DNA of 64,000 nucleotides from NCBI GenBank assembly GCA_000002445.1, contig CP000066.1:1344001-1408000 (forward strand). The letters are read 5' to 3'. This document shows positions 28,191-63,501 of this stretch, one piece after another. The stretch comes from Trypanosoma brucei (Eukaryota). The notes under the pieces were generated by a model that did no database searches, was not told the origin of the DNA, and worked only from the letters and a program-made list of their open reading frames with translations. Within the stretch, counting starts at the first letter, position 1. Each line of letters opens with the position of its first letter. The position numbers were made by a program, and so were the translations under genes.

Positions 28191-28739
28191 TTATTCAAAG
28201 GCTAGAAGAGGGTTTTGGAACAGTTCATCAAATTCTGTCAGCGCGCGCTCGAGGAACTCTATGTCCTTGCACTCCGGAGAAAAAAACCTGAAGAGAGAAT
28301 CGGTTCGAGCCTTCTCGGTTCCAGGTTTCCATAGTATGGGTTGCAGAGAAAGTGTATTTACACTGGGATCAAGCTCACGGGAGAAGGTTCCCTCTTTCAC
28401 AAACATGTTCGGGCGAAAAGTCACCGACACGCAACGGCAGATAGACCCGTCCCTAACACTTGTCTTCACTCTAAAGTCTGTCAGAGCCCGTACAATTTTT
28501 GGATCAATTGTACCATTTAGTAACCCCATAAGGGGAGATTCCACTGCCACAAATGCACTGCCCCAAAACCCTTCTATTTTTTCCAGCTCGAGGTGCCGTT
28601 TATCGAAAAGTGGTTCAATCTTTGACCGGAAATCAATGCGCACTTGATTTGTAAATTCTTCGATTTCCTTTTCCACAGCTGTCACTTTCTCATTGCATTG
28701 AGTAACCGCATTAAGAACGTCCACCGGTATGGAGCTCAT
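28191..28739 (-). CDS. Nucleosome assembly protein (NAP/SET family) histone chaperone, short form.
   Basis: NAP-domain signature: EKIEGFWGSAFVAVESPLMGLL (compare IPGFW...HP.L), followed by VSVTFRPNMFVKEGTFSRELD (compare the F.F..N.YF.N..L.K block). The track start is GTG; the ATG MSSIPVDV is at 28739. Confidence 0.6.
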   Translation of the reverse strand: MSSIPVDVLNAVTQCNEKVTAVEKEIEEFTNQVRIDFRSKIEPLFDKRHLELEKIEGFWGSAFVAVESPLMGLLNGTIDPKIVRALTDFRVKTSVRDGSICRCVSVTFRPNMFVKEGTFSRELDPSVNTLSLQPILWKPGTEKARTDSLFRFFSPECKDIEFLERALTEFDELFQNPLLAFE

Positions 28740-28946
28740 CTTCACTTGTTGTGTTCTATATGACGCAATTGAGTTTCAAACGCAGAAGTCCACCAGGACG
28801 AAGAACAGGAAACAGCGAAGTAGAAGGAAGACAAAAAGTAATACGTCAAGTAGCAAAAGAAAATAATAAATTGACCACCACAAGTTCAGTAACCCTGAAC
28901 CTGCTCCAAAGGGGGGGGATCCGAGTGCAAAGATGTTACAAGCATT

Positions 28947-29561
28947 TCAAATCCTTTTCGCTAAAGCCACACCCAGAGAACACATTATACGAATGCCATT
29001 GTACAAAAGTGGGTACGCTGGTGCATTTTCTGCGCCATTTTGCTCCCCGAGCTCCTGGTGATGCAGTTCTTCATCCCTGAACCGAGCAACATACTCCATG
29101 ACTTCTGCCCAGTCCTTTTCATCCTTGCCTTTCGAAGCACCTTCCGACTCCTCGAGGGATTGTAGCTCCCTAAGCTGATCATTATAGTGCTGTGCTATTG
29201 TGACTTCAACAGCAGCATGGCAACACATTACTGCATCCTTTCCCAGAAGAGCGGTGCAACTACCCATCACAAAGGCGCCCACGTGAAACAGTGGATCTAG
29301 TAACGTCAAGCGCACCGAATGCTTACGAGCTAGGTGACCCATAACCTCTTCGTGAACGAGCTCATCCCTCAGTATCTCCTTGACAACTGGCACGCCACTA
29401 TCGAGGGGGGACATCCATAGCAACTGATACTTGCATATGCGCACCGCAGCCACTTCCCCAGCCTGGTCAACGCGCACAGCTTCATCGAGCTTTTGCCGCT
29501 TCGCCGCGCTTCTGAAAACACGAGCTGGGTTCTGAAGGTTAACCACCGATCTGCGTAACAT
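28947..29561 (-). CDS. COQ7: Ubiquinone biosynthesis di-iron monooxygenase COQ7 (5-demethoxyubiquinone hydroxylase).
   Basis: RVDQAGEVAAVRICKYQ, LLDPLFHVGAFVMG, AVEVTIAQHYNDQLREL and FRDEELHHQELG...APAYPLLYNGIRIMCSLGVALAKRI match the COQ7/CLK-1 di-iron carboxylate motifs (ExxH pairs). This is the first gene of the minus-strand PTU, adjacent to the strand-switch region. Confidence 0.85.
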   Translation of the reverse strand: MLRRSVVNLQNPARVFRSAAKRQKLDEAVRVDQAGEVAAVRICKYQLLWMSPLDSGVPVVKEILRDELVHEEVMGHLARKHSVRLTLLDPLFHVGAFVMGSCTALLGKDAVMCCHAAVEVTIAQHYNDQLRELQSLEESEGASKGKDEKDWAEVMEYVARFRDEELHHQELGEQNGAENAPAYPLLYNGIRIMCSLGVALAKRI

Positions 29562-32059
29562 ACCTAACTAGCTTCAAGGGAAGGCATTTAGCAAACAAAC
29601 AAACATACAAAAGGATATATTGCCTAAAATGGTCGCGCAGCGAATGAATTGCTGAGACAAAGACTCCCAAACTATACCCCCTCTGGGATCAAGTAGGAAA
29701 TGAACATACTGTGGGATACTCGCGTTGGATCCGCCTCCTGTGAACCAGTATTTTCCATACGAGATGGCTGCTTTAGCGAAAAACCGACGAAGCAGTTCAC
29801 ATGCGTACACGGAGATGCGCACGCCGAGGTCAACCCTGGCTGGCCCGCTCCAGAACCGACTCCCAGTGCTGCCGCTGCAGAGAAGAGGGGAGAACGGCGA
29901 TGAATTCAGCGTGAGAACCCAGTTTACAATACCGTGGTGGGGCTCCTCCTACGCTACTTTGCCCACAAAAGCAGCCACACTCAACGCCTCCAGGCACGTG
30001 GAGGAAAATAAAGAAAGGTAAGAATCTCTTCTAACCCGAGACGGTGGCTCCACAGACCCTCAGCCTACTTCTAGCAACCAACGCAGTCGAGGACGGTAAT
30101 GAGAGGGAGGAAGCAGCCCGTTCACAATCAGCTCCAGGAAGCAAGAAAGACCTCGTAACCGCTGCTCCGAGTCGGGTGCCCACACGGGCAAAACTCCGCG
30201 CACCCTTTCGGGCCTCGGCACAGACCCAGTGCGATTCCCCATCCCACCTCTCCCAAAAAGTCCACCAGTGCGCTGTGCTTTCCACCTGACCACAGTCGTC
30301 CTGTTGCCAATATAACCCATTTCTTAAGGGAAGCCCCGTCGTCCACAGTTAAAAAGACGGCGTGTGGTCGTAGCGCCATGGGACTCTCCATATCTGTGCC
30401 TGCTGCTGAAATGCTCGCCCCGGCGATTGCCGTCCCTACAGCAGGCTCGTCTATTCAGTGAAAAAGAGAGGGGAGTTGGCATGTTGCGTGTGTGTGTCGG
30501 GGCTCAGTGCCTTCGTTGCTCCTTTGGGATTTCAGTATCAGTTTTTTACTCTCAGCACGCGCGTCGGCCACGCATAGGCCGCCTTTCCCGTTGGGGCGGC
30601 GTTCGCGCCCTTCTTTGAACGGGGTCGGCTTTACCCCTTTATCGTTTCCGTTTTTTTTTTTTCGAGGCTTCCTCCAGCCATATGTTCTGAGGATGGGTGT
30701 TGGGTACAAACTTCGTTGAAGTACCTGCTTAAGGTTCCTATTTTTTAGTTGTTTATCCCCCAAGTGGGGGTTACCTCGTCTGCGCCTTTGCCTGTGTGGG
30801 GCGCGGAAGACGGGACGGCTTACGACGGAGAGAGGTGCTCCTTTACAGGGGTAGAACGTTGCCAAACTTTTACTGTTTAGCCAAATCTTTTTGGTATATA
30901 TTTTGAGTATTAATTACCCTTTGGAGTGTGCACGTGTTGTTTTCCTTCACTTATACGCGTGTTCCCCGACTTCCAACTGTTGTGCAAGTCTCTTCCTTGG
31001 TTATTAAAAAAACACTAGTGGTTACAAGTTGCTTTACCATATCCTTACCGGTTGTTTTATTAAGGTGGTTCCGTTCAATTATGCGCGTAAGATGACGTGA
31101 TGTATTTATGTAATACGCATAGGCTTGTGTAAATGTGGTTTTCCACAATTCCCACAAATGTGTTACTGTGGATAGTTGTTTTTGTTCCGTTACGCTTCTT
31201 TGTTTTTAGACTATCGCGCACGTCACGGTTTAGGTCGCTTCCACTGCTCTTGTTGTTGTTGCAACGTCCTCGGCTATCTTCTTTGTATTGATAAGTGCGC
31301 CCGTCCGTCATAGCTAACCTGGTTGTTGTTAAGGGTTGTCAAATCTACCTATGCTTAGTACTTTATGCATTTAGGATATGCGCAGAACTGAACTTACTTC
31401 GTTTTTGCTGCCTCATTTGCCGATTCAGCACAGATGGGATGCTTTGCGTCTGCTTCATGGGGTGTGGAGGTGACGGTTTTTAGGTAACAGCCGACCTGCG
31501 TTTCTTTGTACCACTCTTTGGAGGACGACACTCCCTTTTTTGTGTCGCTGGGAGAAAGCGAGTAGTCGGAAAAACGAATGGTTCGCATCAGCGGTTGTTT
31601 ACTTCTTCAGTTTTGTTGTTTGTCACCCCCGTTTATGTGGCTGTTCGTGCAGATTTGTGCTTGTGGTAACCTGTGGAATGGTGGGCAAATCAGTAAAATC
31701 GTAGCGGTTGAGCCGTTTTAGCGCACATTTGGTGATTTCTTATGAGCAGTTTATAATAGGGGGTAAAGAGTGTTTCTGCCCCTTACGTCATAGGGTGGTT
31801 GTGCCTGTGGCGATGGTGCAGGACGGAATATTCTAGGTAACTTCTGGTTGTTCCGTGCTGCTAACCATATGGGGGAAATGCATGTTTGATTCTCTTGTTG
31901 GTTGTATTTAACAGCAAGTGATAACTTTGTCTGTTTCTTGTCATCATTTTCGAAGGTGACTGTTCCACTGAAATGTGATATTTTGCCGCCGACTTCGCCC
32001 CTCTCGACACTTGCAAGCAGCAACAGCAGCAAAGAGTGATGTGAAGTGACCAGGAAGCT
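29562..32059. promoter_or_regulatory. Divergent strand-switch region between the two PTUs, the putative bidirectional RNA Pol II start region. It is GT-rich on the plus strand toward the plus-strand PTU.
   Basis: Coding strand polarity switches from minus (COQ7 start at 29561) to plus (IPT start at 32060). No credible ORF lies in between. From 30600 to 32000 the plus strand is strongly G/T-rich (gttgttgttgcaacg, ggttgttgttaagggttg, and similar). GT-rich elements are the known promoter class at trypanosome divergent strand-switch regions. Confidence 0.6.
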
Positions 32060-33436
32060 ATGAGGTCTATTTACTTTGTCATAGGCGCGACCGGCAGTGG
32101 TAAGTCACTAGCAGCAGTTCGAGTTGCTAAGACCCTTCAGCTCAGGTGTGGCTGTAACAATGTGGTAATATTGAACTGTGACGTTATGCAGTTTTACGCC
32201 GGTCTTCCCATTGTGACGAACAAGATATCATCGGAGGAAATGGATGGGATTCCTCACTGCTTTATGAGTTTCCTTTCTCCCGAGGGCAATAAAATTCGCG
32301 ACCCAACGTTGGCATTCGGAGGTTGTGACCGTGAAGCATTTTCTGAACAGGGTTGTAAGTCTGCAAATGATGCGTATAATATTCATTCATTCGTTCGCGA
32401 TGCTGTAAGTTATATCGAAAGCTTTTTGTCAACTCATTCTCCTGCAGCGGTGGTCGTTTGCGGTGGAACGTGCTATTACGTCCAGTCACTGCTTTTCGAC
32501 AATCTTTTAACTGTAGAAGATACTCATGTGTCGGGGTGTCTGGACACAACTGGCGGGTGCGCAGAACACACCGAATTGAATGATGGGAATTCTCTTTGGG
32601 ACCAACTGAAGGATATTGACCCGGACATTGCTGCTCGATACCATCCCAACGACATCAGACGGATTCGGCGCCTCGTCGACATATACAAAAGGACCAATAG
32701 GATACCATCCGATGTTTATAACTCCAGGGAGAAGCCGCGACTTCGATTTTGTCCCAGTACGTGCTTCATATTGTGGACACACATTGAACTTGAAAAGCTT
32801 AGGCCAAAACTCAACGCACGTATAGATGTGATGGTCGAAAAAGGGATCATTGAGGAATGCCGCAAATTTGCTCAGCGGCATAAAGAGGACGTTTTTACGC
32901 TACCCCTAGGGAAAGCCATAGGTTTTAAAGAAATTGTTTCGTCCTTTGACATGTCGGGAAGTGAAGTTCAACTAAAGGGCGAACGCGAAGTTTCAGAGTC
33001 GCTGGATCTTCTGAAAGTGAACACCAACCGATACGCACGGCAGCAGTGCCAGTGGATAAAAAACCGCTTTCTTGGTCGTCTTCGCGAGCTGTTTGCTACT
33101 GTAAATCTGGAGGAAAACTTTGTTGCAGTTGACGCCTCTGCGAGTCCTTCCGATTTTCTTCGGCAAGTTGAAGTTGCCGTTTTGTTTTTCACCAAACGGA
33201 CGTGCGACAATGTCGCTGGGTTGTTTTTTCCATTGAAAAAAGATGTGTCAATACCATCCCCGGTTCGGCACGAGTGGTGTGGCGTCTGCAACGTCTTTTA
33301 TACCGATGGGAGGGGGAGAATCTCACATCTGCATTCGAAACGACACAGGGGTGCCCTAAGGCACGAGGCGTTGGTGAAGGAGCAAGCTGAGAAGTTTGGT
33401 CGGATAATTCCTTCTAAGAGAGTTAAGCGGTCGTAA
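32060..33436 (+). CDS. tRNA dimethylallyl(isopentenyl)transferase (MiaA/Mod5 family) with a C-terminal C2H2-type zinc finger.
   Basis: P-loop VIGATGSGKSLAAVRVA, conserved DxxQ(F)Y(AG) region and the C-terminal zinc finger WCGVCNVFYTDGRGRISHLHSKRHRG typical of eukaryotic Mod5. Confidence 0.9.
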   Translation: MRSIYFVIGATGSGKSLAAVRVAKTLQLRCGCNNVVILNCDVMQFYAGLPIVTNKISSEEMDGIPHCFMSFLSPEGNKIRDPTLAFGGCDREAFSEQGCKSANDAYNIHSFVRDAVSYIESFLSTHSPAAVVVCGGTCYYVQSLLFDNLLTVEDTHVSGCLDTTGGCAEHTELNDGNSLWDQLKDIDPDIAARYHPNDIRRIRRLVDIYKRTNRIPSDVYNSREKPRLRFCPSTCFILWTHIELEKLRPKLNARIDVMVEKGIIEECRKFAQRHKEDVFTLPLGKAIGFKEIVSSFDMSGSEVQLKGEREVSESLDLLKVNTNRYARQQCQWIKNRFLGRLRELFATVNLEENFVAVDASASPSDFLRQVEVAVLFFTKRTCDNVAGLFFPLKKDVSIPSPVRHEWCGVCNVFYTDGRGRISHLHSKRHRGALRHEALVKEQAEKFGRIIPSKRVKRS

Positions 33437-35438: not shown

Positions 35439-36575
35439 ATGTTTCCGGACCTGATTCCCTCAACATTTGAGAGTGAAAATCAGGGACGCAACAAGGCCTT
35501 TACGACTCTTATGGGAACGGTGCGTGCCCGACGCCGGTTGGCGGAATACCTGTCGTCCACTGCTTTTGTAAGCTTTACGAAAGAACAACAAGAAGTGGTG
35601 CGTTTCTCGGCAATGGGGGAGGCGGTGACCGCGAACCAGATACGTTTAATTGCACCTCATTTTGGTCGGGAAGGGCCGTTTAATGTCTACCAGATCCCCA
35701 ATGGTATTGCAGTAGCTCTGGCAAGGACTGTGGGAGTATACAAAGCATACCATGGTCTTGTTCCTAACAAAATTATGGCTCCTTACATGCGTCGTAAGAT
35801 CTTGCGGCAGTATCATAAAACCCGCGAGGATGACCGTATGCTACGTTTGGAGGGGCTTGACGATTTAACGGATGAGGAGCTGATAAAGGCGAACCTTGTT
35901 CGGGGTATGCGCTGGACAGAGGATGCGGAGACACTACGTATCCAACTTGAATGGTGGATATCTCTAGGACGTGACCCGGATGTCCCTTACAACACCCTTT
36001 TCTGGGTCAAGCCTACCCGATACAGCTTGAAAGAGTCAATGAAACGCTTGCCTGTGGAACAGCGCCGGCAGCTATTGGGCATTCAACATCTTCCCGAGAG
36101 CATTCGTGGAAATCTCGAGACACTCTGCGAAACGGTCGACACAGCTCCATCCATGAGTGAGGGTAAACCTGAGGACGCTGATCAGCTAGTGGAGAAACTT
36201 GCAGAGTTAAATGCTAAAACGAAAATCAGTGATAAGGATATTGCAATTCAGAATATTCAAATATCGCTGGGCGCTTATCTAACGGAACCAAATGTGAAAC
36301 GTATGTTTGAAGACATTCGCAAAAGTAAAACAGTGAACGAATATATAACAGTTACGGATGTCATAGATTTCATTGGAAGTGAAACCCATAATTCTTCCCA
36401 TGTAGTTTCTACTGTGTTTGATGCGTTCGATCAGAGTAGCGGAGTGAAGGCAATTACCGAATCTACACTCATATCTATCGGGGCCCGCTGCAGGGAGGCG
36501 TCAAAGGCACATGTCGACGTATCGTCTCAGTCTTCCCCAGGCAAACAGCCTTCAGAGGTGATTGCAAAAAATTAG
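35439..36575 (+). CDS. LETM1: LETM1-like mitochondrial inner-membrane protein (K+/H+ exchange; LETM1 ribosome-binding domain). This is the ORF as it stands from the first in-frame ATG; the true N-terminus is probably upstream (see the 35131-35438 segment).
   Basis: MFPDLIPSTFESENQ matches LFPNMLPSTFETQS of LETM1 immediately after the TM helix. Downstream are LETM1-domain helices and a long acidic/coiled C-terminus. 378 aa from this ATG. Confidence 0.8.
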   Translation: MFPDLIPSTFESENQGRNKAFTTLMGTVRARRRLAEYLSSTAFVSFTKEQQEVVRFSAMGEAVTANQIRLIAPHFGREGPFNVYQIPNGIAVALARTVGVYKAYHGLVPNKIMAPYMRRKILRQYHKTREDDRMLRLEGLDDLTDEELIKANLVRGMRWTEDAETLRIQLEWWISLGRDPDVPYNTLFWVKPTRYSLKESMKRLPVEQRRQLLGIQHLPESIRGNLETLCETVDTAPSMSEGKPEDADQLVEKLAELNAKTKISDKDIAIQNIQISLGAYLTEPNVKRMFEDIRKSKTVNEYITVTDVIDFIGSETHNSSHVVSTVFDAFDQSSGVKAITESTLISIGARCREASKAHVDVSSQSSPGKQPSEVIAKN

Positions 36576-39311: not shown

Positions 39312-41561
39312 ATGACCTCACTCGTCCTAAATCACTATTCGCAGGAGGAAGTCAGCCGACTTTTCAATCTTTCGTCTCCACGAGACCTATTTCACCAGCG
39401 CACGCCGGCGCTGGCCGACGGAGACGTGAAACAGAAGGTGGAGGAGATACGCTCTTACGTGCATAGCACTATGGAACTGTATGAGAGGGTTTTTGAATGC
39501 CTCTCGTCGGAGGAAGCGTTTTTCGTTCAACCGATCCACAAGCTTCGCCACCCCTTAATTTTTTACTACGGCCACACTGCCTGCTTCTACATAAATAAGT
39601 TGTGCGCCGCTGGACTCTCCATGCGAATTCGCCCACACCTTGAGGAGGCGTTTGCAGTTGGTGTGGATGAGATGAGCTGGGATGATCTTAACGAAGAGCA
39701 CTATAACTGGCCAACAGTGGAGGAAGTTGTAGAGTACCGCCGTGCTGTCCGTAAGCACGTGGATGGCATGATGACAAGTGGCAAATTTGAACTGACCCTT
39801 CCCTTGACATTTGCTGGAAGCACAGAGAACGCTGACAGTTCATTTTGGTGGTTAATGTTGATGTGTGCTGAGCACGAGCGCATCCACGTCGAAACCGCCT
39901 CCGTTCACGTGCGAGAACTTCCCATGCGTTATGTGAGGCCGTCTATGGATCAGTTCTGGAAGCCGTGTGGGGAGGCAGGTTGCGAAGCCCCGGCAAACGA
40001 GCTGGTGGATGTAGCCGGGGGACGGGTAGCCGTCGGACGTGCGCCTAACTCTGAGCTATACGGTTGGGATTGCGACTACTCTGACGGAAATTATGTGCTT
40101 AATGTTGCACCGTTCAAGGCGAGTAAGTACTTAGTGTCTAACGCGGAGTTCTTTACCTTTGTTGTTGCAGGTGGTTACGCTACGCAACGCTACTGGGATG
40201 AGGAAGGGTGGAACTGGGTCCAGTGGAGGAAACCTGAGTGTCCCTGGTTCTGGGTTCGCGATGAGAACCGACCCAAGGGTTATGCGCTTCGACTTCAAAC
40301 GACGCTTATTGACTTGCCGTGGAGCTGGCCATGTGAGATTAACAATCTTGAGGCTCGGGCGTTTTGTAACTTTAAAAGTGAGCAAACTGGGAAGAAAATT
40401 CGTATGCCTACAGAAGCTGAATGGCTGATTCTTTGGGACCGGTACGTCGGCAAAGATCAAATGTTGTGGGATGTAGCGCCGGGGAATGTTAACATGGAAC
40501 ACTTCCAAAGTAGTTGCCCTGTCGATAAGTTTGCTCACGGTCCATTTTTCGATATAGTTGGAAACGTGTGGCAGCACTGTGAAACACCAGTATACCCGTA
40601 TCCTGGTTACCAGGTGCATCCATTCTACGATGATTTTTCTATGCCTACCTTTGATGGTCGCCATGCGTGTATGAAAGGCGGGGCATGGGTTAGTACGGGG
40701 AACGAGGCTACACGCGATGCTCGCTTCGCCTTTCGCCGCCATTTCTTCCAATACATCGGACTTCGATACGTGGAAGGTGAACCGGTGCAAGAGGGGTTTC
40801 TCAACTTGAATTCGTTGGGGCTTGATCCCATGGTGGATGCCATTACGGATGCCAACTACCGTCCTTCGTTTAATGACATCCCTAATGGTTTCGTACAGAT
40901 AGCAGAATTTGTTATGAACCAGTTCAGGTGTTGTGCTAGGACAGGGCCGAAGCGTGCCCTTGATTTTGCGTGTGGGGCTGGACGGATAGCATTTGAGCTG
41001 ACGTCAATGTTTGATCAAGTGGTTGGGTCGGATTTTTCTGCCCGATTGCTCATTCCCGCCTACGCTATCAGTGAGCGCGGAAGCTACACATATAGTATTG
41101 TGAACTCTTCTACGTCGAGACGTGTAGAACAAACCTTCAAGTCGCTGGGGTACCCGTGGGATGCAACCCGAGGGCGCGCTGTTTTTTTTCAAGCAGATCC
41201 TACGAACCTACACTCCCACATGAAAGATTTCTCGTTGATCTTGTGCTGGAACACGCTGGATAGGAGCTACAACCCCACCGCTGTTCCGTCGCATATGGTT
41301 GACAGGCTTGTGGTGGGTGGTTTGATTGTCTTCGGGCTTGATGGAGTGACTGATGAAGTCAACGAAGGAAAGAGGGAGCAGGGGGGTGAGGAAACACCCA
41401 AGCAGGTCGTCTTCTCAGAAAACGAGATCTATCATCTGTTGGGCGGAGAAAACGTGGTGGACCGCGTCGGAGACCCAACACAACTGACGGTTGCGTTTCC
41501 TGCGTCAGACTCTACAGCAACTTTCAGAAAAGTTCGGCTGTCCGTCTACCGAAAGAAATAA
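39312..41561 (+). CDS. ovoA: 5-histidylcysteine sulfoxide synthase OvoA (ovothiol biosynthesis). It combines a DinB-like iron-binding domain, an FGE-sulfatase domain and a C-terminal SAM-dependent methyltransferase domain.
   Basis: The N-terminal DinB_2-like domain carries the iron-binding HX3HXE motif (CAEHERIHVE). The FGE-sulfatase domain has RMPTEAEWL and GNVWQHCET (compare GNVWEW). The C-terminal class I methyltransferase motif I is LDFACGAGRIAFEL. This three-domain order is diagnostic of OvoA rather than fungal Egt1, which has the reverse order. Trypanosomatids are known ovothiol producers. Confidence 0.85.
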   Translation: MTSLVLNHYSQEEVSRLFNLSSPRDLFHQRTPALADGDVKQKVEEIRSYVHSTMELYERVFECLSSEEAFFVQPIHKLRHPLIFYYGHTACFYINKLCAAGLSMRIRPHLEEAFAVGVDEMSWDDLNEEHYNWPTVEEVVEYRRAVRKHVDGMMTSGKFELTLPLTFAGSTENADSSFWWLMLMCAEHERIHVETASVHVRELPMRYVRPSMDQFWKPCGEAGCEAPANELVDVAGGRVAVGRAPNSELYGWDCDYSDGNYVLNVAPFKASKYLVSNAEFFTFVVAGGYATQRYWDEEGWNWVQWRKPECPWFWVRDENRPKGYALRLQTTLIDLPWSWPCEINNLEARAFCNFKSEQTGKKIRMPTEAEWLILWDRYVGKDQMLWDVAPGNVNMEHFQSSCPVDKFAHGPFFDIVGNVWQHCETPVYPYPGYQVHPFYDDFSMPTFDGRHACMKGGAWVSTGNEATRDARFAFRRHFFQYIGLRYVEGEPVQEGFLNLNSLGLDPMVDAITDANYRPSFNDIPNGFVQIAEFVMNQFRCCARTGPKRALDFACGAGRIAFELTSMFDQVVGSDFSARLLIPAYAISERGSYTYSIVNSSTSRRVEQTFKSLGYPWDATRGRAVFFQADPTNLHSHMKDFSLILCWNTLDRSYNPTAVPSHMVDRLVVGGLIVFGLDGVTDEVNEGKREQGGEETPKQVVFSENEIYHLLGGENVVDRVGDPTQLTVAFPASDSTATFRKVRLSVYRKK

Positions 41562-43002: not shown

Positions 43003-44502
43003 ATGCGGCGTGCATTGTACCGTGGGGTGACCGAGTCAGGAGCTGAAATAAGAAATTTTGCTGTTCACGCTGGATGCATGCGACGCTGGTGCAGCGCTGC
43101 GAGTGGTTCTTCGCGTGGTGATAGGCCCACTGATTATGATGTACCTCCACCGCGCCCCGCCTTTTATGTGCCCCCGGAGGAACGAGCATCAGACGATGCC
43201 TCGCTACAGTTTCTTCGGAAAGACAGTGGAGTGCGCTCAGGTCTGATGAAGGGATGTGGGGATGCGACTGGTGAGGTTAAACTAGAGCCTGGCCAACTCT
43301 TCGCCCCCGAGCCTCCCGTCCGCCCGGCGGAATCACCCAGTTACATCAATGAAAAAGCAGCGCGATTGTCATCTACAAGTGTCCGCGCAGGGGCCTCCTT
43401 GTTAACGGGGGACATCGGAGCAGAGGTCAGTCGTCTAGCGGTGGTGAAAAATTCCACATCTACGCGGAACCGAAGCGAGAAAACAGATGCATCTCCACCC
43501 CTCACGTATGGGGGGAGTAAAGGATCGATATTTGAGTCGAGGGACGTAGCCGATGGAGTGCCGGAAGGGAAAAAGATCAGACAACATGAAGGAACTGTTG
43601 GCAGAGGTGAGGAAGGCGGAGAAACCACTGGAGGAAATCCCACTGGCGATGAATTGCCGCTCTTACAACAAATGCAGGTTGATCTTCGCCGTCTGGAATA
43701 CTACCAGGGGACCCCCCAATATCCAGAGATGCTGAAGGAGTTCCGCGCAAAATACTTATCTGACGGCGGTAGCGAGGGTGAAGGGGACGGACGTCTGGAG
43801 GACCTTCGGTCTTACACCCAGGAAGAGCTGGCGCGCGGACTGGAGTCACAGCCAATTGATTATCTTCGGGCTAGCAGTAAGTTGAAGGTGGAGCTTACCA
43901 GCGGCCCCAGAGCGTACGACCCGGTACTTGTCATGCAGCAGATGGGTGTGATGCGGTTTCAAGGGTATGCTTTCCCTCCCACGACGGAATTAGGTAGGCT
44001 ATGCGACAGTGATGGAAAACTGCCGGACTCGAGCGAAGGTGCCCATAGATTTGCCAAGTATGTAGCTCAGACGGCTCCAACAGCCATCAAAGATCAATTG
44101 AAAGGCAATGAGGACAGGCACATTCTCTATCGAACAATGGGCCTAGACGTCGTACAACGCCGACAAGTGAAGGCTATGTTGAGTGACTTTGACCACGGTG
44201 ATCGCCATACGTCATACCATGTGATGATGTCGTATCCCTACGCTGACTGGTTACATGTGTTCTACATGGTTTTGGTGGGGGTGGCGATATATGAGATGCA
44301 GGTTCGATTTTGTGCGTATGACTTTTATGATGAGTATTTGGGATTGGACCTGCGCCAAGTTCCCAAATTGAAGAAGCCCTTCCTTGTCACTGTTACTGTT
44401 GTGGTGATGGTAGTCGCACTGTTTCACCCACTGCTTCTAGTTAGCATTGCAACCACGCGTCTTTATCGCATCGCGATGAAGCGCCCTGTTGGACCTCCAT
44501 AA
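43003..44502 (+). CDS. Hypothetical protein with C-terminal transmembrane helices.
   Basis: 499-aa ORF with an ATG start. The C-terminus VFYMVLVGVAIYEM ... LVTVTVVVMVVALFHPLLLVSIA is predicted to be 2 TM helices. The N-terminal half is low-complexity Ser/Gly/Glu-rich. Confidence 0.45.
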   Translation: MRRALYRGVTESGAEIRNFAVHAGCMRRWCSAASGSSRGDRPTDYDVPPPRPAFYVPPEERASDDASLQFLRKDSGVRSGLMKGCGDATGEVKLEPGQLFAPEPPVRPAESPSYINEKAARLSSTSVRAGASLLTGDIGAEVSRLAVVKNSTSTRNRSEKTDASPPLTYGGSKGSIFESRDVADGVPEGKKIRQHEGTVGRGEEGGETTGGNPTGDELPLLQQMQVDLRRLEYYQGTPQYPEMLKEFRAKYLSDGGSEGEGDGRLEDLRSYTQEELARGLESQPIDYLRASSKLKVELTSGPRAYDPVLVMQQMGVMRFQGYAFPPTTELGRLCDSDGKLPDSSEGAHRFAKYVAQTAPTAIKDQLKGNEDRHILYRTMGLDVVQRRQVKAMLSDFDHGDRHTSYHVMMSYPYADWLHVFYMVLVGVAIYEMQVRFCAYDFYDEYLGLDLRQVPKLKKPFLVTVTVVVMVVALFHPLLLVSIATTRLYRIAMKRPVGPP

Positions 44503-45071: not shown

Positions 45072-48000
45072 ATGTCTATGCACCGTGACTTACTTCGAAT
45101 AAGGCGGCAGACGTCGAACCTTGTCTCGTCACCCTCGCCTCCTTCCTCACGTGCCAGCCCTCGTGCAAGGGTGAGTTCGGCTAGAGGGGAACAACGACAA
45201 GGTGCTAGTGAAGCCGTGCATGTAGCAGTTCGTGTGCGGCCTTTGTCTGTCAATGAGGCGGGACAAGATGTCATCGTTTCGATGGATCCGTCAGCGAAGA
45301 AGATATTCGTGAGGAACCGAGGCGAGGAGCAACAAGAGTTTCCTTTTGAGTTGCCCGTATGGTCTTGCGGTGGAAATGCGCTAAACGGCTCGCCGCCGGT
45401 AAGTCAGGCAGCACTGTACAAAATGGTTGGGCAACCCCTTTTGGACCACGCATTTGAGGGCTTTAACAGCACACTTATGGTATACGGTAGCACAGGCAGC
45501 GGAAAAACTTACACAATGATGGGTGACATGGATGGCGGCTTTCTGGGTGAGGACGAGGATGTGCTCAACGATGGTGAGGAGGGCATTGTCCCACGCCTAT
45601 GCCGTGAGATGTTTCAGAAGATCAGAGATCGCTCGGTCAGCTTGTCTGACGGGGGAACGCTGACGTGGGATGTGCATGCCTCCTATGTGGAGGTTTATTG
45701 TGAGAAGATTAGCGATTTACTGAATAACGGTGCCCCTGTCACTATTCGTGAGGTGATCACGGATAACGAAGCGCACTTTGCGCTCAATGGTGCGCAGCGG
45801 GTTAACGTCCGTAATTCAGCGGAAATACTGCATCTCCTAAAAATTGGTAACAGACACAGGAAAACAGCCTCTACGGCCATGAATGAGCGCAGTAGTCGTA
45901 GTCATGCTATATTTGTTGTGGAGCTCACCGAGATGCTTGTAGTGAGGGGACCCGATGGTGAGTGTGTCGGTGCCCCAGGCAAGTTCCTTACCGTTCGCCT
46001 CGTTGATTTGGCGGGTAGTGAACGCGTTGGGGAAGCGGGCATGTCGGGACAGCTATTCAAGGAGGGTGTTGATATTAACTGCAGCCTCTTCACCCTGGGT
46101 ATGGTAATTGAGGCTCTTTCGGATCCTAGTCGACGCCATATGAGGCCACCATACCGTGACAGTACGTTGACGAAGATTCTAAAGGACGCATTTGGTGGAA
46201 ACAGCAAAACCACGATGATTTGTACCATTGCCCCCACGGAGGCCCAACGTGTGCACACGGTTCAAACACTTCAGTACGGGCTTAAGGCGCGACGAATTGT
46301 GAACAAGCCATGTGCGAAGAGAGGACCGTCAGCTAAAGAGCTTCGTAAGGCCAGTGAGGAGATGCTTAGTTTACGCCAGAAGCGCAGGGAAAGGCAACCA
46401 CAAGGCACTGGCTTGGAGGAATCGTATGCTGATCTAAGGCGTGCTGGCGACGGAGGCTTACATAATGGGGGTGCTTTACGTCATTCTGAGAGCTCGTCGG
46501 AAGGCAAGGAGACTTCTCTTGGCGGCTCCAATTTCGCTACAGATGAGGAGAGGGACCGTTACAGGAGGAAGATGGAAGAGCTGGAAGAAGAAATTGAGCG
46601 TGCGAGGGCGAGATACAGAGAGCAGGGGCGGGAGCTGCAAAACATAAGGAGAGAGAGTGCGGCTGAGGCTGAGGTGCGTTTAAGGGCGTTAGAAGCCCAA
46701 TTCAATGAGAAGGAAAATCATTTGAAGCGGAAAGGTCACGAAATTCAAAGGAAGCACCGTGATGCGGAGAGCCGATTGAAAGAGTTTAAAAATTTTTCGG
46801 AGGAGCGCATTTCTGACCTCCTTCGTGCACAGGGGGAGCTGAAAGATAAGTTACACGAGAAGGAACTTGCAGTCGGGCAGCGTGAGCGGGAGCTGCAGGA
46901 GGCCCAGAGTCGTGCCGAGGAGGAGGTTTCCCGTTTGCATCAGCGCATGATGCAGCAGGAACGAAAATGGCTTGAGCGCCATAAGGCTTTGGAAGCTGAA
47001 ATTTGCGCACAGGAAGACAAAATGAGGGACCGATTGCGTGATGCTATGGAGAGAATGCGTAATGTGGAAGAAGTTGCAGCACGTCGCGAGAGTGAGCTTC
47101 ACCGCAAGTGGTTAGATGCCCAGCAAGCGACCCGAGAGCTTCACCACAAGTTAGCTGAGAGCGAGGCAGAAAAGGCGCGACAAATATCTCAGGATCGCCG
47201 GGAAACAACCAAACGCGAGTCTGAACTTGCCCATAAATTGGAAGAAACTGAGCGCGGCCGAAAGGCCCTCGAACGTGAGGCGGTATCGCTAAAGACTGAA
47301 TTGGATGTGTTGAAGGAAGACTACGAGATGCTCGCTAAAAACAGCAGGGAGGGTTGTGATGCGGAGGCGCGGCTTCTCCCCCTTGAGGAGGAACTAAAGA
47401 GGCGAGAGGAGCGGCTGCAGCAACGCGAGGAACAGGCCCAGGCATCACTCGATGAAGTTCTAAAGAAGCAAGAGGAACTGGACCGCTTACACCTCGCAGT
47501 CATTGCCAAAGCAGATGCTATTGAGAAGGATGCGGTTGCCGCACTTCGGGAAAGGGAGAGTCGCCTTCAGAAGCGTGAAGATGAGCTTAAGAGCTTGGAG
47601 CATGAGTTGGAGGCACGCTCCGCGGTTTTGGATGTGGAGGCCAAGTATAAATCAATGGAGTACGATACGAAGGAGAGTGGGGCAGAGGCTTTAGCTTCCC
47701 GCGAACGCCGCGCCACAGAACTGCTTCAAGATGAACTTCAGGAAGCATTGCAACGTGTTCATCTCGACATGAAACAGAGGGAAGAGAAGTTTGATCGAAT
47801 GGAAGATGATATCAAGCGATGTCGTGAGCAGTTGGAGAATCTCTACAACGAGCGGGATGAGATGCTTAGGCGTGCATCCACATCCTCCGCTGGACGCAGC
47901 TGCGTGTTTGACTCGCCGCTTCCCGTTCCTCCACGGGGTTGCCGAAGATGCAGGTCGGGTACATCGTGGCCGTCCAACTGTAGCACGATGGGGACCGGGG

Positions 48001-49856
48001 AGGAAAATGATGCGTCTCTCAGTGGGCGGCAGTTCTCTCCTAACCAAAGCAGCGCGTCGCAGCAAGAACCGCGCTGCTCAGAGAACGGGGTTGAGGGGGG
48101 GAGGTCGTCTGAACTGCGTCCGATAAGTGCTCTTGCGGGGGAGTCGGTTTGCTTATGGCTCAAGAATATGCTGATCACTATGGAGGAAAGGAGCCGCGGC
48201 TTACTTGAGGATTTGTGCTATCATGAATACAGTGTCCTCGAGCGGATGACGTCCATCGGCTCTCTTTTTTCGTTTGGCGAAAATGCTCCCAACACGAGGA
48301 GCCCTGAGGTGGCCGCCAGGGTGGTTGACCGTACTTCGGTGTCTGCATGTAGTGACCATTTGCGCGGTGGTTTTCGACTTGGATCAATATGTGGTGTCGT
48401 GCCCCATGATGCTCCTTGCGTGCCTAGCCTCATGCATACTGAAGCGGACTGCGGTTTAAGAGATGCAGCATCGGAACATGAACAACTTGCCCAGCGTATA
48501 GTCGCGTTTGAACGGCTGCAGCATCAACGTGAGGTCGAGTTTCAGCAGAAGGATGAGCAAATCAGGGAATACCTAGTTGAAGTGGAGGCGATGGATCGTG
48601 AAAGGATGGCGATGTATCGCTTAAAGGAGGAGGAACACGAGGCTGCGGCTGCACAGTTGCAGATGGCAAAACGTGAGTTTGACCACCGTGTTAATTGCAT
48701 GCAGCAAACCCTTTTTTGCCGCGGCGCGCAGCAACACGCTGAGTCCATAGTCTTGCAGGAGGCCGCTGAACGTGAGAACATTTTTCGGCTATTCAACATT
48801 CAACTTCACAAGATTTTCGCCCATGAGAGAAACATGGCGCACCATACGAACTGTGTGGACTTGTTGCGCCAGAGAGAGGAGGTGATCACGCTTGAGGAGG
48901 CACAACTCCAGAAACGTATAAGTCAGCTAAAGGACGAGGAGGATGAGTGGAAAAGACGTCGTTCCACCGAGGAGACGCAGATACTCACGTACCTATTGGA
49001 GCTACAAAACGAAGATATGCTGCGCAAGCAAGCCATTGGGGAGAAGGGAAGCAGAGAGGACACCGCGAAATACTGCGAAGACGCCGAACTCGGGGTTGCG
49101 GGTTTGTGTAATGTGATGCATCGAGTAAGGGATCACACGCAGAAGTGTGAACTTGCGGTACAAAAGATGGAGAGTGAACTGGAACAGCAGGCAGATGCGG
49201 AGAAGGTCTTGGAGGAACGTGAAGCTGCTGTTGAACGGCGCCGTCGTGAACTTTCCACCAGCATGGAGTCTCGGGAGCGTTCCCTTTTGGACAGGGAAAT
49301 GGAACTGGAGGAGTTGACTCGTCGGCTTAAAGGTGACATACAAAAACGTGAACTTGCGATACAAAAGATGGAGAGTGAACTGGAACAGCAGGCAGATGCG
49401 GAGAAGGTCTTGGAGGAACGTGAAGCTGCTGTTGAACGGCGCCGTCGTGAACTTTCCACCAGCATGGAGTCTCGGGAGCGTTCCCTCTTGGAACAGGAAG
49501 TGGACCTACGGAAACTGTCCACTAAAGCAGGGGATAATTGTCGTAAACGTCCGGGTTCTCGTGTGGCACATAATCAGGAAGGTTCCTACTACGTTGACAT
49601 CAAGAAACTTCTGGAGGTCTGTGGATTTCAACTGCCGGGTGGAAAAGTTGAATTCCCGGACGGCGCTGACACACCGATTGAACTGACCGATAACCTTATC
49701 GACGTTATCGAATCACTACGACGCCAGCTAAAGGTATGGATTCAAAAGTATCGTGTGCTGAAGTCAGATGAGAAACTGGAGTGTGAACGCTGTTTGTGGC
49801 AGAATAACCGTGGTGCCACTGTGTGCCGATGCTGCGGCAATGCTCAACTTGTGTAA
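45072..49856 (+). CDS. Kinesin-like protein. It has an N-terminal motor domain, a ~1100-aa coiled-coil stalk containing a tandemly duplicated 67-aa segment, and a C-terminal RanBP2-type zinc finger.
   Basis: Motor motifs: P-loop GSTGSGKTYTMMG, switch I NERSSRSHAIF and switch II LVDLAGSER. Long heptad-rich E/R/K/Q stalk. The C-terminus ECERCLWQNNRGATVCRCCGN fits the W-x-C-x2-C...N...C-x2-C RanBP2 ZnF pattern. Confidence 0.9.
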   Translation: MSMHRDLLRIRRQTSNLVSSPSPPSSRASPRARVSSARGEQRQGASEAVHVAVRVRPLSVNEAGQDVIVSMDPSAKKIFVRNRGEEQQEFPFELPVWSCGGNALNGSPPVSQAALYKMVGQPLLDHAFEGFNSTLMVYGSTGSGKTYTMMGDMDGGFLGEDEDVLNDGEEGIVPRLCREMFQKIRDRSVSLSDGGTLTWDVHASYVEVYCEKISDLLNNGAPVTIREVITDNEAHFALNGAQRVNVRNSAEILHLLKIGNRHRKTASTAMNERSSRSHAIFVVELTEMLVVRGPDGECVGAPGKFLTVRLVDLAGSERVGEAGMSGQLFKEGVDINCSLFTLGMVIEALSDPSRRHMRPPYRDSTLTKILKDAFGGNSKTTMICTIAPTEAQRVHTVQTLQYGLKARRIVNKPCAKRGPSAKELRKASEEMLSLRQKRRERQPQGTGLEESYADLRRAGDGGLHNGGALRHSESSSEGKETSLGGSNFATDEERDRYRRKMEELEEEIERARARYREQGRELQNIRRESAAEAEVRLRALEAQFNEKENHLKRKGHEIQRKHRDAESRLKEFKNFSEERISDLLRAQGELKDKLHEKELAVGQRERELQEAQSRAEEEVSRLHQRMMQQERKWLERHKALEAEICAQEDKMRDRLRDAMERMRNVEEVAARRESELHRKWLDAQQATRELHHKLAESEAEKARQISQDRRETTKRESELAHKLEETERGRKALEREAVSLKTELDVLKEDYEMLAKNSREGCDAEARLLPLEEELKRREERLQQREEQAQASLDEVLKKQEELDRLHLAVIAKADAIEKDAVAALRERESRLQKREDELKSLEHELEARSAVLDVEAKYKSMEYDTKESGAEALASRERRATELLQDELQEALQRVHLDMKQREEKFDRMEDDIKRCREQLENLYNERDEMLRRASTSSAGRSCVFDSPLPVPPRGCRRCRSGTSWPSNCSTMGTGEENDASLSGRQFSPNQSSASQQEPRCSENGVEGGRSSELRPISALAGESVCLWLKNMLITMEERSRGLLEDLCYHEYSVLERMTSIGSLFSFGENAPNTRSPEVAARVVDRTSVSACSDHLRGGFRLGSICGVVPHDAPCVPSLMHTEADCGLRDAASEHEQLAQRIVAFERLQHQREVEFQQKDEQIREYLVEVEAMDRERMAMYRLKEEEHEAAAAQLQMAKREFDHRVNCMQQTLFCRGAQQHAESIVLQEAAERENIFRLFNIQLHKIFAHERNMAHHTNCVDLLRQREEVITLEEAQLQKRISQLKDEEDEWKRRRSTEETQILTYLLELQNEDMLRKQAIGEKGSREDTAKYCEDAELGVAGLCNVMHRVRDHTQKCELAVQKMESELEQQADAEKVLEEREAAVERRRRELSTSMESRERSLLDREMELEELTRRLKGDIQKRELAIQKMESELEQQADAEKVLEEREAAVERRRRELSTSMESRERSLLEQEVDLRKLSTKAGDNCRKRPGSRVAHNQEGSYYVDIKKLLEVCGFQLPGGKVEFPDGADTPIELTDNLIDVIESLRRQLKVWIQKYRVLKSDEKLECERCLWQNNRGATVCRCCGNAQLV
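49147..49548 (+). repeat. Near-perfect tandem duplication of 201 bp (2 copies) inside the kinesin stalk coding region.
   Basis: Copy 1 (~49147-49287) and copy 2 (~49348-49488) share over 140 nt with only 2 mismatches (gtgaacttgcgGtacaaaagatggagagtgaactggaacagcaggcagatgcggagaaggtcttggaggaacgtgaagctgctgttgaacggcgccgtcgtgaactttccaccagcatggagtctcgggagcgttccct). They encode the duplicated peptide IQKMESELEQQADAEKVLEEREAAVERRRRELSTSMESRERSLL. Confidence 0.85.
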
Positions 49857-55309: not shown

Positions 55310-56134
55310 ATGACAGTAATGGACGTGGATGCCACCGCCATCCCGGATATGATCGAGGCGCAGCTGACTCTTAGCTACAGCCGCCTCACACAACTAATTC
55401 GTCTGATTGTTGACCAGGGCAACGGCCATGATATGGACATTGGGAAGATTATGAATCGTCTAGATGCGCTTGCAAAGGAAAACGCAGAGCTTCGGAAGCG
55501 TGTGGACGAGCTCACAGAGACGACGATGCGCTGTGGAGGCGTCAACGAGGAGGTAGCAGTGTTGAAACGGGAAGTCGCCATTGTGCAGGAGCTCTGTACC
55601 GAGAATACGAAGAGGCTCACCAGCAGTGAAGGCATAAATGAGAGACGATTCGTTAAGTTGGAGGAAGCGGTAAGTACAGTATCGGACACAGGGACAACTG
55701 AAACCCAACGCTTGGACGGATGTATCACCGAGCTTCGATCGGAGAACTTGGAGATGAAGAAGGATGTTGGGTGCTTGAACGACTTCGTAGCCCTTTGGGA
55801 CGGTCATGTAGAGAAGATTCGAGCGCTGACCACACGTGACTCAGAGGGTAATTTGCAGCACGCAGCACATGAGAGGGCGAGATACCTTCACTCCCTTCCC
55901 CCATTCACTAAACTGTTTGAGGAGTTGGAGGTGATGCGGCAGCTGAATCGACATCAGACTACGGACTCACTCGCCGCAAAGGGTGTCGTAGGTGTGTTGA
56001 GGCGCTCAAGCGTCGGCGATATTGCGGGGAATACGGATCCCGCACCCAAATCACCATGCGTGGCGACCCCCGCTGCCGAAACAGAGTCGTGGAGAGAATC
56101 AATGCCACCATCGCTCAGTTGGACAAACGGCTAA
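55310..56134 (+). CDS. Hypothetical coiled-coil protein. It may be the N-terminal part of a longer protein continuing in the 56056-56961 ORF.
   Basis: 274-aa ORF with an ATG start. The heptad-rich segment NRLDALAKENAELRKRVDELTETT is one example. It terminates 79 nt after the next ORF begins in another frame. Confidence 0.45.
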   Translation: MTVMDVDATAIPDMIEAQLTLSYSRLTQLIRLIVDQGNGHDMDIGKIMNRLDALAKENAELRKRVDELTETTMRCGGVNEEVAVLKREVAIVQELCTENTKRLTSSEGINERRFVKLEEAVSTVSDTGTTETQRLDGCITELRSENLEMKKDVGCLNDFVALWDGHVEKIRALTTRDSEGNLQHAAHERARYLHSLPPFTKLFEELEVMRQLNRHQTTDSLAAKGVVGVLRRSSVGDIAGNTDPAPKSPCVATPAAETESWRESMPPSLSWTNG

Positions 56135-56961
56135 AGGCCCTGGAGACTGAGCGAGCGGAACGAGGTAATGAGGCGCATGGCGCGGCTGCATACAGTTCAC
56201 AGTTCTTCATGGAAAAGGACTCACGCAACGCTGTGCCTCCATTGGTGGAGGGTTTCATTCCCTCGAGGGCTGTTCTAACCGACATCGAAGATCGACTGTG
56301 TTACCTTGAAGCTGCACTCAAAACCGGTAATACCTTGCCATCCTCCCGACGTGTACCACGGTTGCCTGAGAGGGATCTTCCACCAATCGTGGGAGCACCA
56401 CACCCCCCCGGTGCAGCACCATTGCAGGGTGAAGCTGGGGGAGAACCTTCAACTTCCACAAGCAAAGAACGTCAGGCATCCGAGCGGGCTGCAAGCAACG
56501 GCACATCGAATGGGATACCTCCACCTATTCAAGGACATCGAGGGTGCGACGTCAGCAATCCCTCTGCAGGAAACTCATCAAGTGCTGGCGTAAGTCAAGG
56601 ACGGCACGCGGTGGATGACGGCAGTGTGTTGCGACAACGCGTCGACAAACTTGAAGAGAGGGCGTCTGTGCTGGAGAAAAAGAAAGCTGATCGGCGGGAG
56701 GTGCAGCAACTGGAGGAATTTGTAGAGGAATTAGCCAGGCGTTCGTTGGGGCCACTCCAAACTGGTCCAGTGCCTTCCAACATGCAAGAAAATGCGCAAT
56801 TGGGTTACTCAGATGACGTTCTCGGGATGGGGAGAGGCTCGCGAAAAGTGGGCACTGCTCCACTCATGCGCTCCGTATTTGTTGTTGGCATGGGTACACA
56901 GTTGAACGATTCGACGGGCAGCAAAACTTCCGCCACAGTCGCCAACCCCAGGCAACTTTAG
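56056..56961 (+). CDS. Hypothetical protein (coiled coil plus a Pro/Ser/Gly-rich region). It may be the C-terminal continuation of the 55310 ORF.
   Basis: 301-aa ORF. It begins with a heptad-like segment RVVERINATIAQLDKRLKALETERAE. It overlaps the upstream ORF by 79 nt on the same strand, which is unusual for trypanosomatid genes. Confidence 0.4.
   Translation: MRGDPRCRNRVVERINATIAQLDKRLKALETERAERGNEAHGAAAYSSQFFMEKDSRNAVPPLVEGFIPSRAVLTDIEDRLCYLEAALKTGNTLPSSRRVPRLPERDLPPIVGAPHPPGAAPLQGEAGGEPSTSTSKERQASERAASNGTSNGIPPPIQGHRGCDVSNPSAGNSSSAGVSQGRHAVDDGSVLRQRVDKLEERASVLEKKKADRREVQQLEEFVEELARRSLGPLQTGPVPSNMQENAQLGYSDDVLGMGRGSRKVGTAPLMRSVFVVGMGTQLNDSTGSKTSATVANPRQL

Positions 56962-63458: not shown

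Positions 63459-63501
<43 letters not shown>

Follow-up and report, generated by a model that had tools for sequence, protein, structure and literature searches.

The kinesin described here is encoded in a 64,000-nucleotide stretch of the Trypanosoma brucei genome (contig CP000066.1, positions 1,344,001 to 1,408,000 of the forward strand), and this whole stretch is called the window below. It is an orphan kinesin with an N-terminal motor, and we are fairly confident that a 201-bp (67-codon) unit is tandemly arrayed, in frame, in its distal stalk, with a copy number that varies between assemblies. The coding sequence lies at 45072..49856 on the plus strand. Its 1594-aa product had been recognized in an earlier reading made from the letters of the DNA (the sequence-only reading), and the list of open reading frames (ORFs), the translation, the Pfam match of the motor and an exact-sequence look-up confirm it. 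The protein sequence is identical to that of T. brucei brucei TREU927 XP_844087.1 (UniProt Q582P0) and of T. equiperdum OVI SCU68248.1, and the DAL972 kinesin of T. b. gambiense, likewise 1594 aa long, is 99% identical.

The repeat has two cores. Copy A, the core of the left-edge unit, is at 49147..49291 (+) and copy B, the core of the right-edge unit, is at 49348..49492 (+). In the 201-nt register they differ at 2 of 145 nt. The sequence-only reading was exact on the repeat, on the length of its unit and on the figure of about 2 differences in more than 140 nt. The longest identical stretch in this register comparison is 127 nt (from 49159–49285), and blastn of the core against the window recovers the second copy with an E-value of 3e-70. 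The period of 201 nt equals 67 codons and the array is in frame. One difference, G49158/A49359, gives Val1363 versus Ile; the other, T49286/C49487, is synonymous (Leu). The rest of the unit is a 56-nt segment at 49292..49347 (+) that encodes ...DREMELEELTRRLKGDIQKR and is delimited by unit-by-unit comparison with the IVM-t1 assembly described below. This segment has one near-identical occurrence in the window and four identical ones in IVM-t1. The second unit ends in a diverged tail at 49493..49548 (+) with 43% nucleotide identity to 49292–49347, and the 33 nt before copy A are 55% identical to the 3′ part of the same segment; other parts of the stalk, compared at this offset, give a background of 28% (standard deviation 7–8%). 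The window contains about 1.7 homogeneous units or, equivalently, two units with diverged outer edges. Tandem Repeats Finder (TRF) does not report the 201-nt period in the window because fewer than two full homogeneous copies are present there. A repeat search of the window returns 193 nt at 89%.

Four assemblies are compared at this locus: TREU927 (the window), DAL972, T. equiperdum OVI (GCA_001457755.2) and T. b. equiperdum IVM-t1 (GCA_003543875.1, chromosome CM010674.1). Long reads are included in IVM-t1 only, which was built from PacBio RS II and MiSeq 2×300 reads with HGAP3, ABySS, Pilon and Metassembler (PMC6395869). IVM-t1 has five cores with exact 201-nt spacing, and TRF on this locus reports a period of 201, 4.8 copies, 99% matches, 0 indels and a score of 1892. 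Units 2–4 are all 201 nt long and mutually 100% identical, and the internal units all share a Cys1417 variant. The left edge of unit 1 is that of copy A in the window, and the right edge of unit 5 is that of copy B. Relative to the window, IVM-t1 is longer by 603 nt net, which is 3 units, and the flanking DNA is colinear with 98.5–99.4% identity. The array and the tail run in frame to the same stop codon as in the window and would give a protein of 1795 aa. OVI and DAL972 have two units, as does TREU927, and in all three these are the left-edge and right-edge units only. The repeats of TREU927 and DAL972 are not the same in sequence: TREU927 has Val1363 and Arg1417, whereas DAL972 has Ile and Cys. 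The IVM-t1 kinesin coding sequence also contains two single-C deletions, at 5908 and 8467 of the extracted locus (window 45330 and 47890), which split the annotation into an 855-aa fragment and an unannotated 851-aa ORF. The IVM-t1 draft is reported to have 2,473 pseudogenes (PMC6395869). Pseudogenization was considered for this gene and set aside; the two single-C deletions are more likely residual indel errors of the assembly.

Copy number is either polymorphic or under-counted in assemblies made without long reads. The warning in the sequence-only reading that copies are easily collapsed in assembly gains direct support, with 4.8 units in the long-read-containing IVM-t1 versus 1.7 in the window. 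We lean mildly towards true copy-number polymorphism within Trypanozoon. The reference copy number would then be one allele of a polymorphic locus; otherwise it may be a collapsed count. The two-unit picture in the window is expected alike from a true two-unit allele and from collapse of identical internal units. The agreement of independent assemblies with different single-nucleotide differences in the repeat favors real two-unit alleles, while the disagreement of the long-read assembly, together with the documented collapse of repeats in trypanosomatids, favors collapse. In the collapse case TREU927 would truly have at least about five units, as probably would DAL972 and OVI, and the two units seen would reflect the assembler's minimal path through identical 201-bp units. 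We regard this as possible but doubtful. The two-unit assemblies hold exactly both edge units and no identical internal ones, all three were made without long reads while the sole long-read-containing assembly has 4.8 units, and tandem-repeat collapse is well documented for trypanosomatid assemblies without long reads (PMC5994713). However, the T. vivax Y486 assembly retains about 12 units of a 105-nt repeat, which shows that collapse does not always happen, and a true two-unit allele would look identical to a collapsed array. In addition, two independent capillary-read assemblies, DAL972 and TREU927, differ in their repeat variants and both have two units; Sanger reads can span an array of 346 nt.

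Several points weigh against a variable array. Five units are seen in one assembly only, IVM-t1; its PacBio yield was low, with 7,508 reads (PMC6395869); Pilon polishing could have inflated the identity among its units; and it is not error-free, as the two 1-bp deletions in the kinesin gene show. The low yield and the two indel errors, together with the merging of contigs from two assemblers, would fit an over-expansion artefact in IVM-t1, with two units being true and fixed in the T. brucei group. We consider such an artefact very improbable. Perfect tandem repeats are usually collapsed, not expanded, by assemblers, and the IVM-t1 array has no indels and clean junctions, keeps the reading frame and exceeds that of the window by exactly 3 × 201 nt.

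The sequence-only reading attributed the near-identity of the copies to a very recent duplication or to ongoing concerted evolution; the first part now appears less likely and the upkeep of uniformity is favored. An older duplication, its copies kept alike by unequal exchange or gene conversion, seems to us more likely than a one-off very recent one, because the outer edges have diverged (43–55% nucleotide identity) and the cores agree even at synonymous sites. Two copies made by a single very recent event without continuing homogenization would explain why the cores differ at only 2 of 145 nt, yet the flanks of the cores are still weakly alike (55% and 43% against the 28% background), and the protein edges are alike too (DREMELEELT.. 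versus EQEVDLRKLS..), as in old decayed units. A fresh 201-bp copy would also leave a second identical 56-nt segment, none of which is present, and strains differ in copy number. Such a recent event is decidedly unlikely. For the older, homogenized duplication, unequal exchange, replication slippage or gene conversion could account both for the uniformity of the array and for its change in length. The step from two to five units looks recent, because the internal units are perfectly identical and all carry Cys1417. A reading of the diverged linker as a gene-conversion patch within two old units was ruled out by the IVM-t1 array, because that array places the 56-nt linker inside the homogeneous unit and makes the window a pair of edge units.

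The origin of the unit is seen in a comparison of 18 orthologues. They come from Trypanosoma (T. theileri, T. melophagium, T. grayi, T. conorhini, T. cruzi, T. c. marinkellei and T. vivax), from Leishmania, Novymonas and Leptomonas and from several Logan contigs, and include the DAL972 copy of the T. brucei gene. Only two species have tandem repeats, with a 67-aa unit in T. brucei and a 35-aa unit in T. vivax, and in both the repeats occupy the same position in the stalk. In the 16 other orthologues the unit is single-copy. In other trypanosomatids the T. brucei unit finds its counterpart in a single-copy segment about 110–170 residues from the C-terminus, with alignment z-scores of 7.0 for T. 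theileri, 8.8 for T. grayi and 5.8 for T. cruzi; in each of the three, 0 of 300 shuffles match the alignment score. In the multiple alignment the last T. brucei unit, the one that contains copy B, is colinear with the single-copy segment (...ERTADINRRRHEASVLAEENERTLQDQEDDL...) and remains colinear on to the stop codon. These results identify the T. brucei unit as a duplicate of a stalk segment that occurs once in those stercorarian trypanosomes and Leishmaniinae that were compared.

The T. vivax array has a 35-aa period and covers residues 1319–1732 with 11.8 units that are 97.6% identical. By eye, its unit (..ERALEARVAEASRRHEEVSAAALEAEQRE..) resembles the single-copy segment and occupies the same position. 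The T. brucei and T. vivax expansions are positionally equivalent and probably independent, because their unit lengths and boundaries differ. One result counts against relating the two arrays: when aligned, their units do not score significantly above composition-matched shuffles (z 1.3–2.1), and unit-to-unit homology is only suggestive. No T. congolense orthologue was seen in the protein homologue search. A word-index homologue search with the C-terminal 313 aa gave no match, not even to the query's own protein, and is not read as absence. A literature search on T. vivax tandem-repeat kinesin antigens found only a general T. cruzi long-read paper. Immediately after the array, over 49548–49658 (residues 1493–1529), T. 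brucei and T. vivax have diverged where the other orthologues keep ..NEEVEKQIK..ELQRQ..YxDLxKLLEERDxLLRxEHAHR.. The salivarian stalk-tail junction is remodelled beyond the repeat itself.

The distal stalk is predicted to be helical. In an AlphaFold2 (AF2) model based on the orthologue alignment, residues 1331–1492 form one uninterrupted helix with a predicted local distance difference test score (pLDDT) of 88–98. The helix spans both units and includes the KGD between them. With a rise of 0.15 nm per residue, a unit would lengthen the helix by about 10 nm. In a crude heptad scan the best register shifts once per T. brucei unit, because 67 = 9 × 7 + 4, while the register of the 35-aa T. vivax unit is essentially constant. 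Each additional unit may contribute 67 residues of continuous α-helix together with one more conserved EREAAVERRRRELS...RERSLL motif, and may shift the heptad register by +4. It weighs against this part of the picture that both the coiled-coil state and the value of 10 nm per unit come from a monomer AF2 model and a crude heptad count. Past the array, residues 1493–1529 (49548..49658, +) have low confidence (pLDDT <50, AF2 model m2e08b1e6aba9) and probably form a flexible linker. The linker is followed by a conserved tail helix, residues 1535–1565, ...LTDNLIDVIESLRRQLKVWIQKYRVLK (49674..49766, +), which corresponds to AF2 helix 206–236 of the modelled segment and is supported by alignments A2 and A3. 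The predicted order after the array is flexible linker, conserved helix and a single Cys4 zinc ribbon, and the zinc ribbon would most likely be the cargo- or partner-binding end of the motor.

The C-terminal tail, ...ECERCLWQNNRGATVCRCCGNAQLV followed by the stop codon, is present as the sequence-only reading had it, and its cysteines span residues 1571–1588. The predicted Cys4 zinc ribbon at 49782..49835 (+), CERC-LWQ-N-NRGATV-CRCC, is supported by an invariant motif, a PDB profile search and the AF2 model. Across the aligned orthologue tails the motif is C-x2-C-[S/L/T]-[W/F]-x-N-x6-C-x2-C-G, in which the Cys, Asn and Gly residues are invariant (finger alignment A4 holds 13 sequences). A HMMER profile run against 1.84 billion representatives finds the tail and finger in Angomonas deanei, in a Bodo saltans kinesin fragment and in two kinesins of about 3100 aa from Logan contigs (P0124 and P0125). 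Judged by these matches, a kinesin with this tail and finger is present across the kinetoplastid lineages sampled. In P0124 and P0125 the tail helix and zinc ribbon are internal (residues ~2565–2763), not C-terminal, and the motor domain of P0124 is spread over residues 326–810.

The sequence-only reading assigned the finger to the RanBP2/NZF type and named a zf-RanBP hidden Markov model search as the check. A true finger of this type would bind ubiquitin or Ran-GDP, and the motor would carry ubiquitylated cargo; we consider this unlikely, and binding of ubiquitin or cargo by the finger is a conjecture. The spacing, C-x2-C-x3-N-x6-C-x2-C with the Asn four residues after the second Cys, is that of RanBP2-type fingers (C-x2(4)-C-x10-C-x2-C). 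The tail profile ranks RanBP2 (E 2.5e-5, summed over eight fingers) and Nup153 (2.5e-4) highest in the PDB, and the HOIP, TRABID, YAF2 and NPL4 fingers are also at the top, alongside eL40. AF2 models the finger with a zinc-ribbon fold, two short β-hairpins that carry the cysteines (pLDDT 72–86), which are also present in a model of the tail alone. It superposes on Nup153 ZnF4, TRABID NZF1, the RanBP2 fingers and eL40 with a root-mean-square deviation of 0.6–0.8 Å over 23–28 residues. The Pfam zf-RanBP family (PF00641) matches one of 12 orthologue tails, with an E-value of 3.8e-4. Ubiquitin-binding NZF fingers (Npl4, TAB2) use a T-F dipeptide behind the second Cys plus a hydrophobic residue ahead of the fourth, and at these positions most orthologues have S-W and Cys, and one (P0022) has T-F and Ala.

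Against the assignment, Pfam zf-RanBP misses the T. brucei tail at E ≤ 10, and at the same threshold Pfam finds no zinc-finger family in the tail alone, in the last 86 aa or in the last 494 aa. The other Pfam matches among the 12 orthologue tails are to Zn_ribbon_3 (three), DZR (one) and Zn_Ribbon_1 (one). The tryptophan of the RanBP2-type W-x-C is missing from all orthologues, which have K-[LVI]-E-C or similar with no Trp two residues before the first Cys; their Trp is instead two residues after the second Cys. The T. brucei finger itself has L-W where NZF fingers have T-F, and a Cys in place of the hydrophobic residue. With hhalign, the kinesin finger scores 36.1 (probability 96.3) against RanBP2-type fingers and 42.0 (probability 97.3) against the Zn_ribbon/DZR type, and the two types score 33.5 (probability 96.1) against each other. 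The profile also finds finger-only matches of both kinds, namely Pfam-verified RanBP2-type arrays (P0127, P0130, which has a RanBP1 domain, and P0132) and prokaryote-type Zn_Ribbon_1/DZR arrays (P0126, P0128, P0129 and P0131). Foldseek of the tail model against the PDB gives no hit at E ≤ 0.001, with all E-values >0.2 because the finger domain is so small, and eL40 ranks as high as the RanBP2-type fingers. The RanBP2/NZF label agrees with the spacing, the PDB profile and the superposition; it fails on the Pfam model and the W-x-C tryptophan, and hhalign places the finger as close to Zn_ribbon/DZR. The domain is real and conserved and is best taken as a predicted Cys4 zinc ribbon with RanBP2-like spacing and modelled fold that is not fileable as a PF00641 member. 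A literature search for kinesins with a RanBP2-type zinc finger in trypanosomes found nothing relevant.

The N-terminal motor, residues 54–409 (45231..46298, +), belongs to the kinesin superfamily. It matches PF00225 with an E-value of 4.4e-83 and 279 bits versus a cut-off of 29.3, and the full model (1–327) is covered. The closest solved motors, KIF7, KIF14, KIF1A and KIF13B, all score within 196–216 bits, with KIF7 (kinesin-4) slightly above KIF1A, and no clear kinesin family can be assigned because these scores are near-equal. A Pfam scan of the protein finds no FHA (PF00498) or KIF1B-type domains of kinesin-3. Several orthologues bear kinesin-3 or 'Unc104-like' names in databases; this family label is unsupported, given the missing FHA domain and the near-equal motor scores. 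The protein is better described as an orphan kinesin, so far seen only in kinetoplastid-like sequences.

From gene order we infer that the kinesin gene is Tb927.3.4960, because its neighbors, Letm1 and a 499-aa ORF, fit the published order and this identifier is listed as a kinesin. Letm1, published as Tb927.3.4920, is at window 35439–36575. The 499-aa ORF at 43003–44502 (+) adjoins the kinesin upstream, has no Pfam match and fits the published description of Tb927.3.4950, which is reported as the only putative ZapE1 interactor and as lacking homology beyond kinetoplastids (PMC7314023). Tb927.3.4960 is included in a list of T. brucei kinesin homologues (PMC3008729). It is a TbPLK BioID hit in both whole-cell lysate and cytoskeletal pellet, and the endogenously tagged protein localizes to the cytoplasm (PMC4551316). 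Literature searches on the function of Tb927.3.4960 found nothing beyond these TbPLK proximity and localization data, and searches by the UniProt and GenBank accessions of the kinesin found nothing relevant.

An antisense ORF of 129 aa with a GTG start, at 49133..49522 (−), falls entirely within the repeat. The sequence-only reading called it spurious, and this is borne out. In two of its three antisense frames the unit lacks stop codons, and in the five-unit IVM-t1 assembly the antisense ORFs lengthen to 321 and 330 aa. It is rejected as a gene and regarded as a by-product of stop-free antisense frames in the repeat. Elsewhere in the kinesin coding sequence, an imperfect 21-nt × 2 tandem repeat (GGCGATGGATCGCTGAAAGGAT, 85% match) is present at 48587–48628 (+) and is also found in IVM-t1. 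All ORFs of at least 250 aa in the window are on the minus strand up to 26788 and on the plus strand from 32060; the interval 26788–32060 is a divergent strand-switch region, from which two polycistronic units usually start in trypanosomatids. The 749-aa ORF at 39312–41561 (+) combines DinB_2, FGE-sulfatase and methyltransferase domains, an architecture that we take to be that of the ovothiol synthase OvoA. Two plus-strand ORFs, 55310–56134 (274 aa, with weak Pfam matches of coiled-coil type only) and 56056–56961 (301 aa), share about 80 nt that they read in different frames and may be one frameshifted gene or two close genes. A perfect (AT)20 microsatellite lies at 63459–63498. No tRNA genes were found across the 64-kb window.

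The array is an ordinary but real one, with a parallel expansion in T. vivax. It does not overturn current understanding; both stalks with tandem repeats and repeats collapsed in assembly are well known from trypanosomatids. The 1594-aa gene model of the reference could lack 201 residues, or it could be a single allele at a locus of variable length. The copy-number issue touches primer and probe design, tagging, mass-spectrometry mapping and the interpretation of read depth at this locus. The region before the tail is amplified in two salivarian lineages with different boundaries, and may be a hot spot of recombination or else an element whose function can be tuned. A bolder proposal joins two claims, that a salivarian-specific, length-variable stalk expansion (2–5 units of 67 aa in the T. 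brucei group, some 12 units of 35 aa in T. vivax) is under selection, and that the zinc ribbon is NZF-like and reads ubiquitin. The possible gains from expansion would be more partner-binding motifs, tuning of motor reach or a repetitive B-cell antigen. Taken jointly, these claims are quite improbable. If the finger did read ubiquitin, this would be the first kinesin directly recognizing ubiquitylated cargo. The conserved zinc ribbon does not appear in the precomputed domain lists of the kinesin, which give PF00225 and PF16796 only; it offers a concrete handle in the search for the cargo of an otherwise uncharacterized kinesin.

Several known systems resemble parts of this protein. The motor is N-terminal and about 36–39% identical to KIF1, KIF13 and KIF16 motors, as in kinesin-3 (Unc104/KIF1A), but the accessory domains of kinesin-3, such as FHA, are absent from the T. 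brucei protein. The zinc ribbon shares the Cys4 spacing, the conserved Asn and the modelled fold with RanBP2/NZF fingers (PF00641; Nup153, RanBP2, Npl4, TAB2, TRABID and HOIP), and differs from them in having neither the leading Trp nor a Pfam hit. With Zn_ribbon_1/DZR fingers (CPxCG..N..A.FC..CG..L) it shares the C-G-x-x-L ending. The Leishmania K39 (LcKin)-like proteins also carry near-identical in-frame repeats in a helical kinesin stalk, in numbers that vary with strain and assembly and are typically under-counted by short-read assemblies. K39, however, has dozens of 39-aa units, belongs to another kinesin lineage and lacks the zinc-ribbon tail, and K39-like kinesins appear in our homologue search as distant motor matches only. 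The T. brucei unit is 67 aa long, is present in 2–5 copies and derives from a segment that is single-copy in other trypanosomatids. The T. vivax Y486 orthologue (UniProt G0TTH8) has the same motor, tail helix and zinc ribbon, and a near-perfect array at the matching point of the stalk, directly ahead of the tail. The two arrays differ in their units, which in T. vivax are 35 aa (exactly 5 heptads) in 11.8 copies and in T. brucei 67 aa (9 heptads plus 4 residues) in 2–5 copies.

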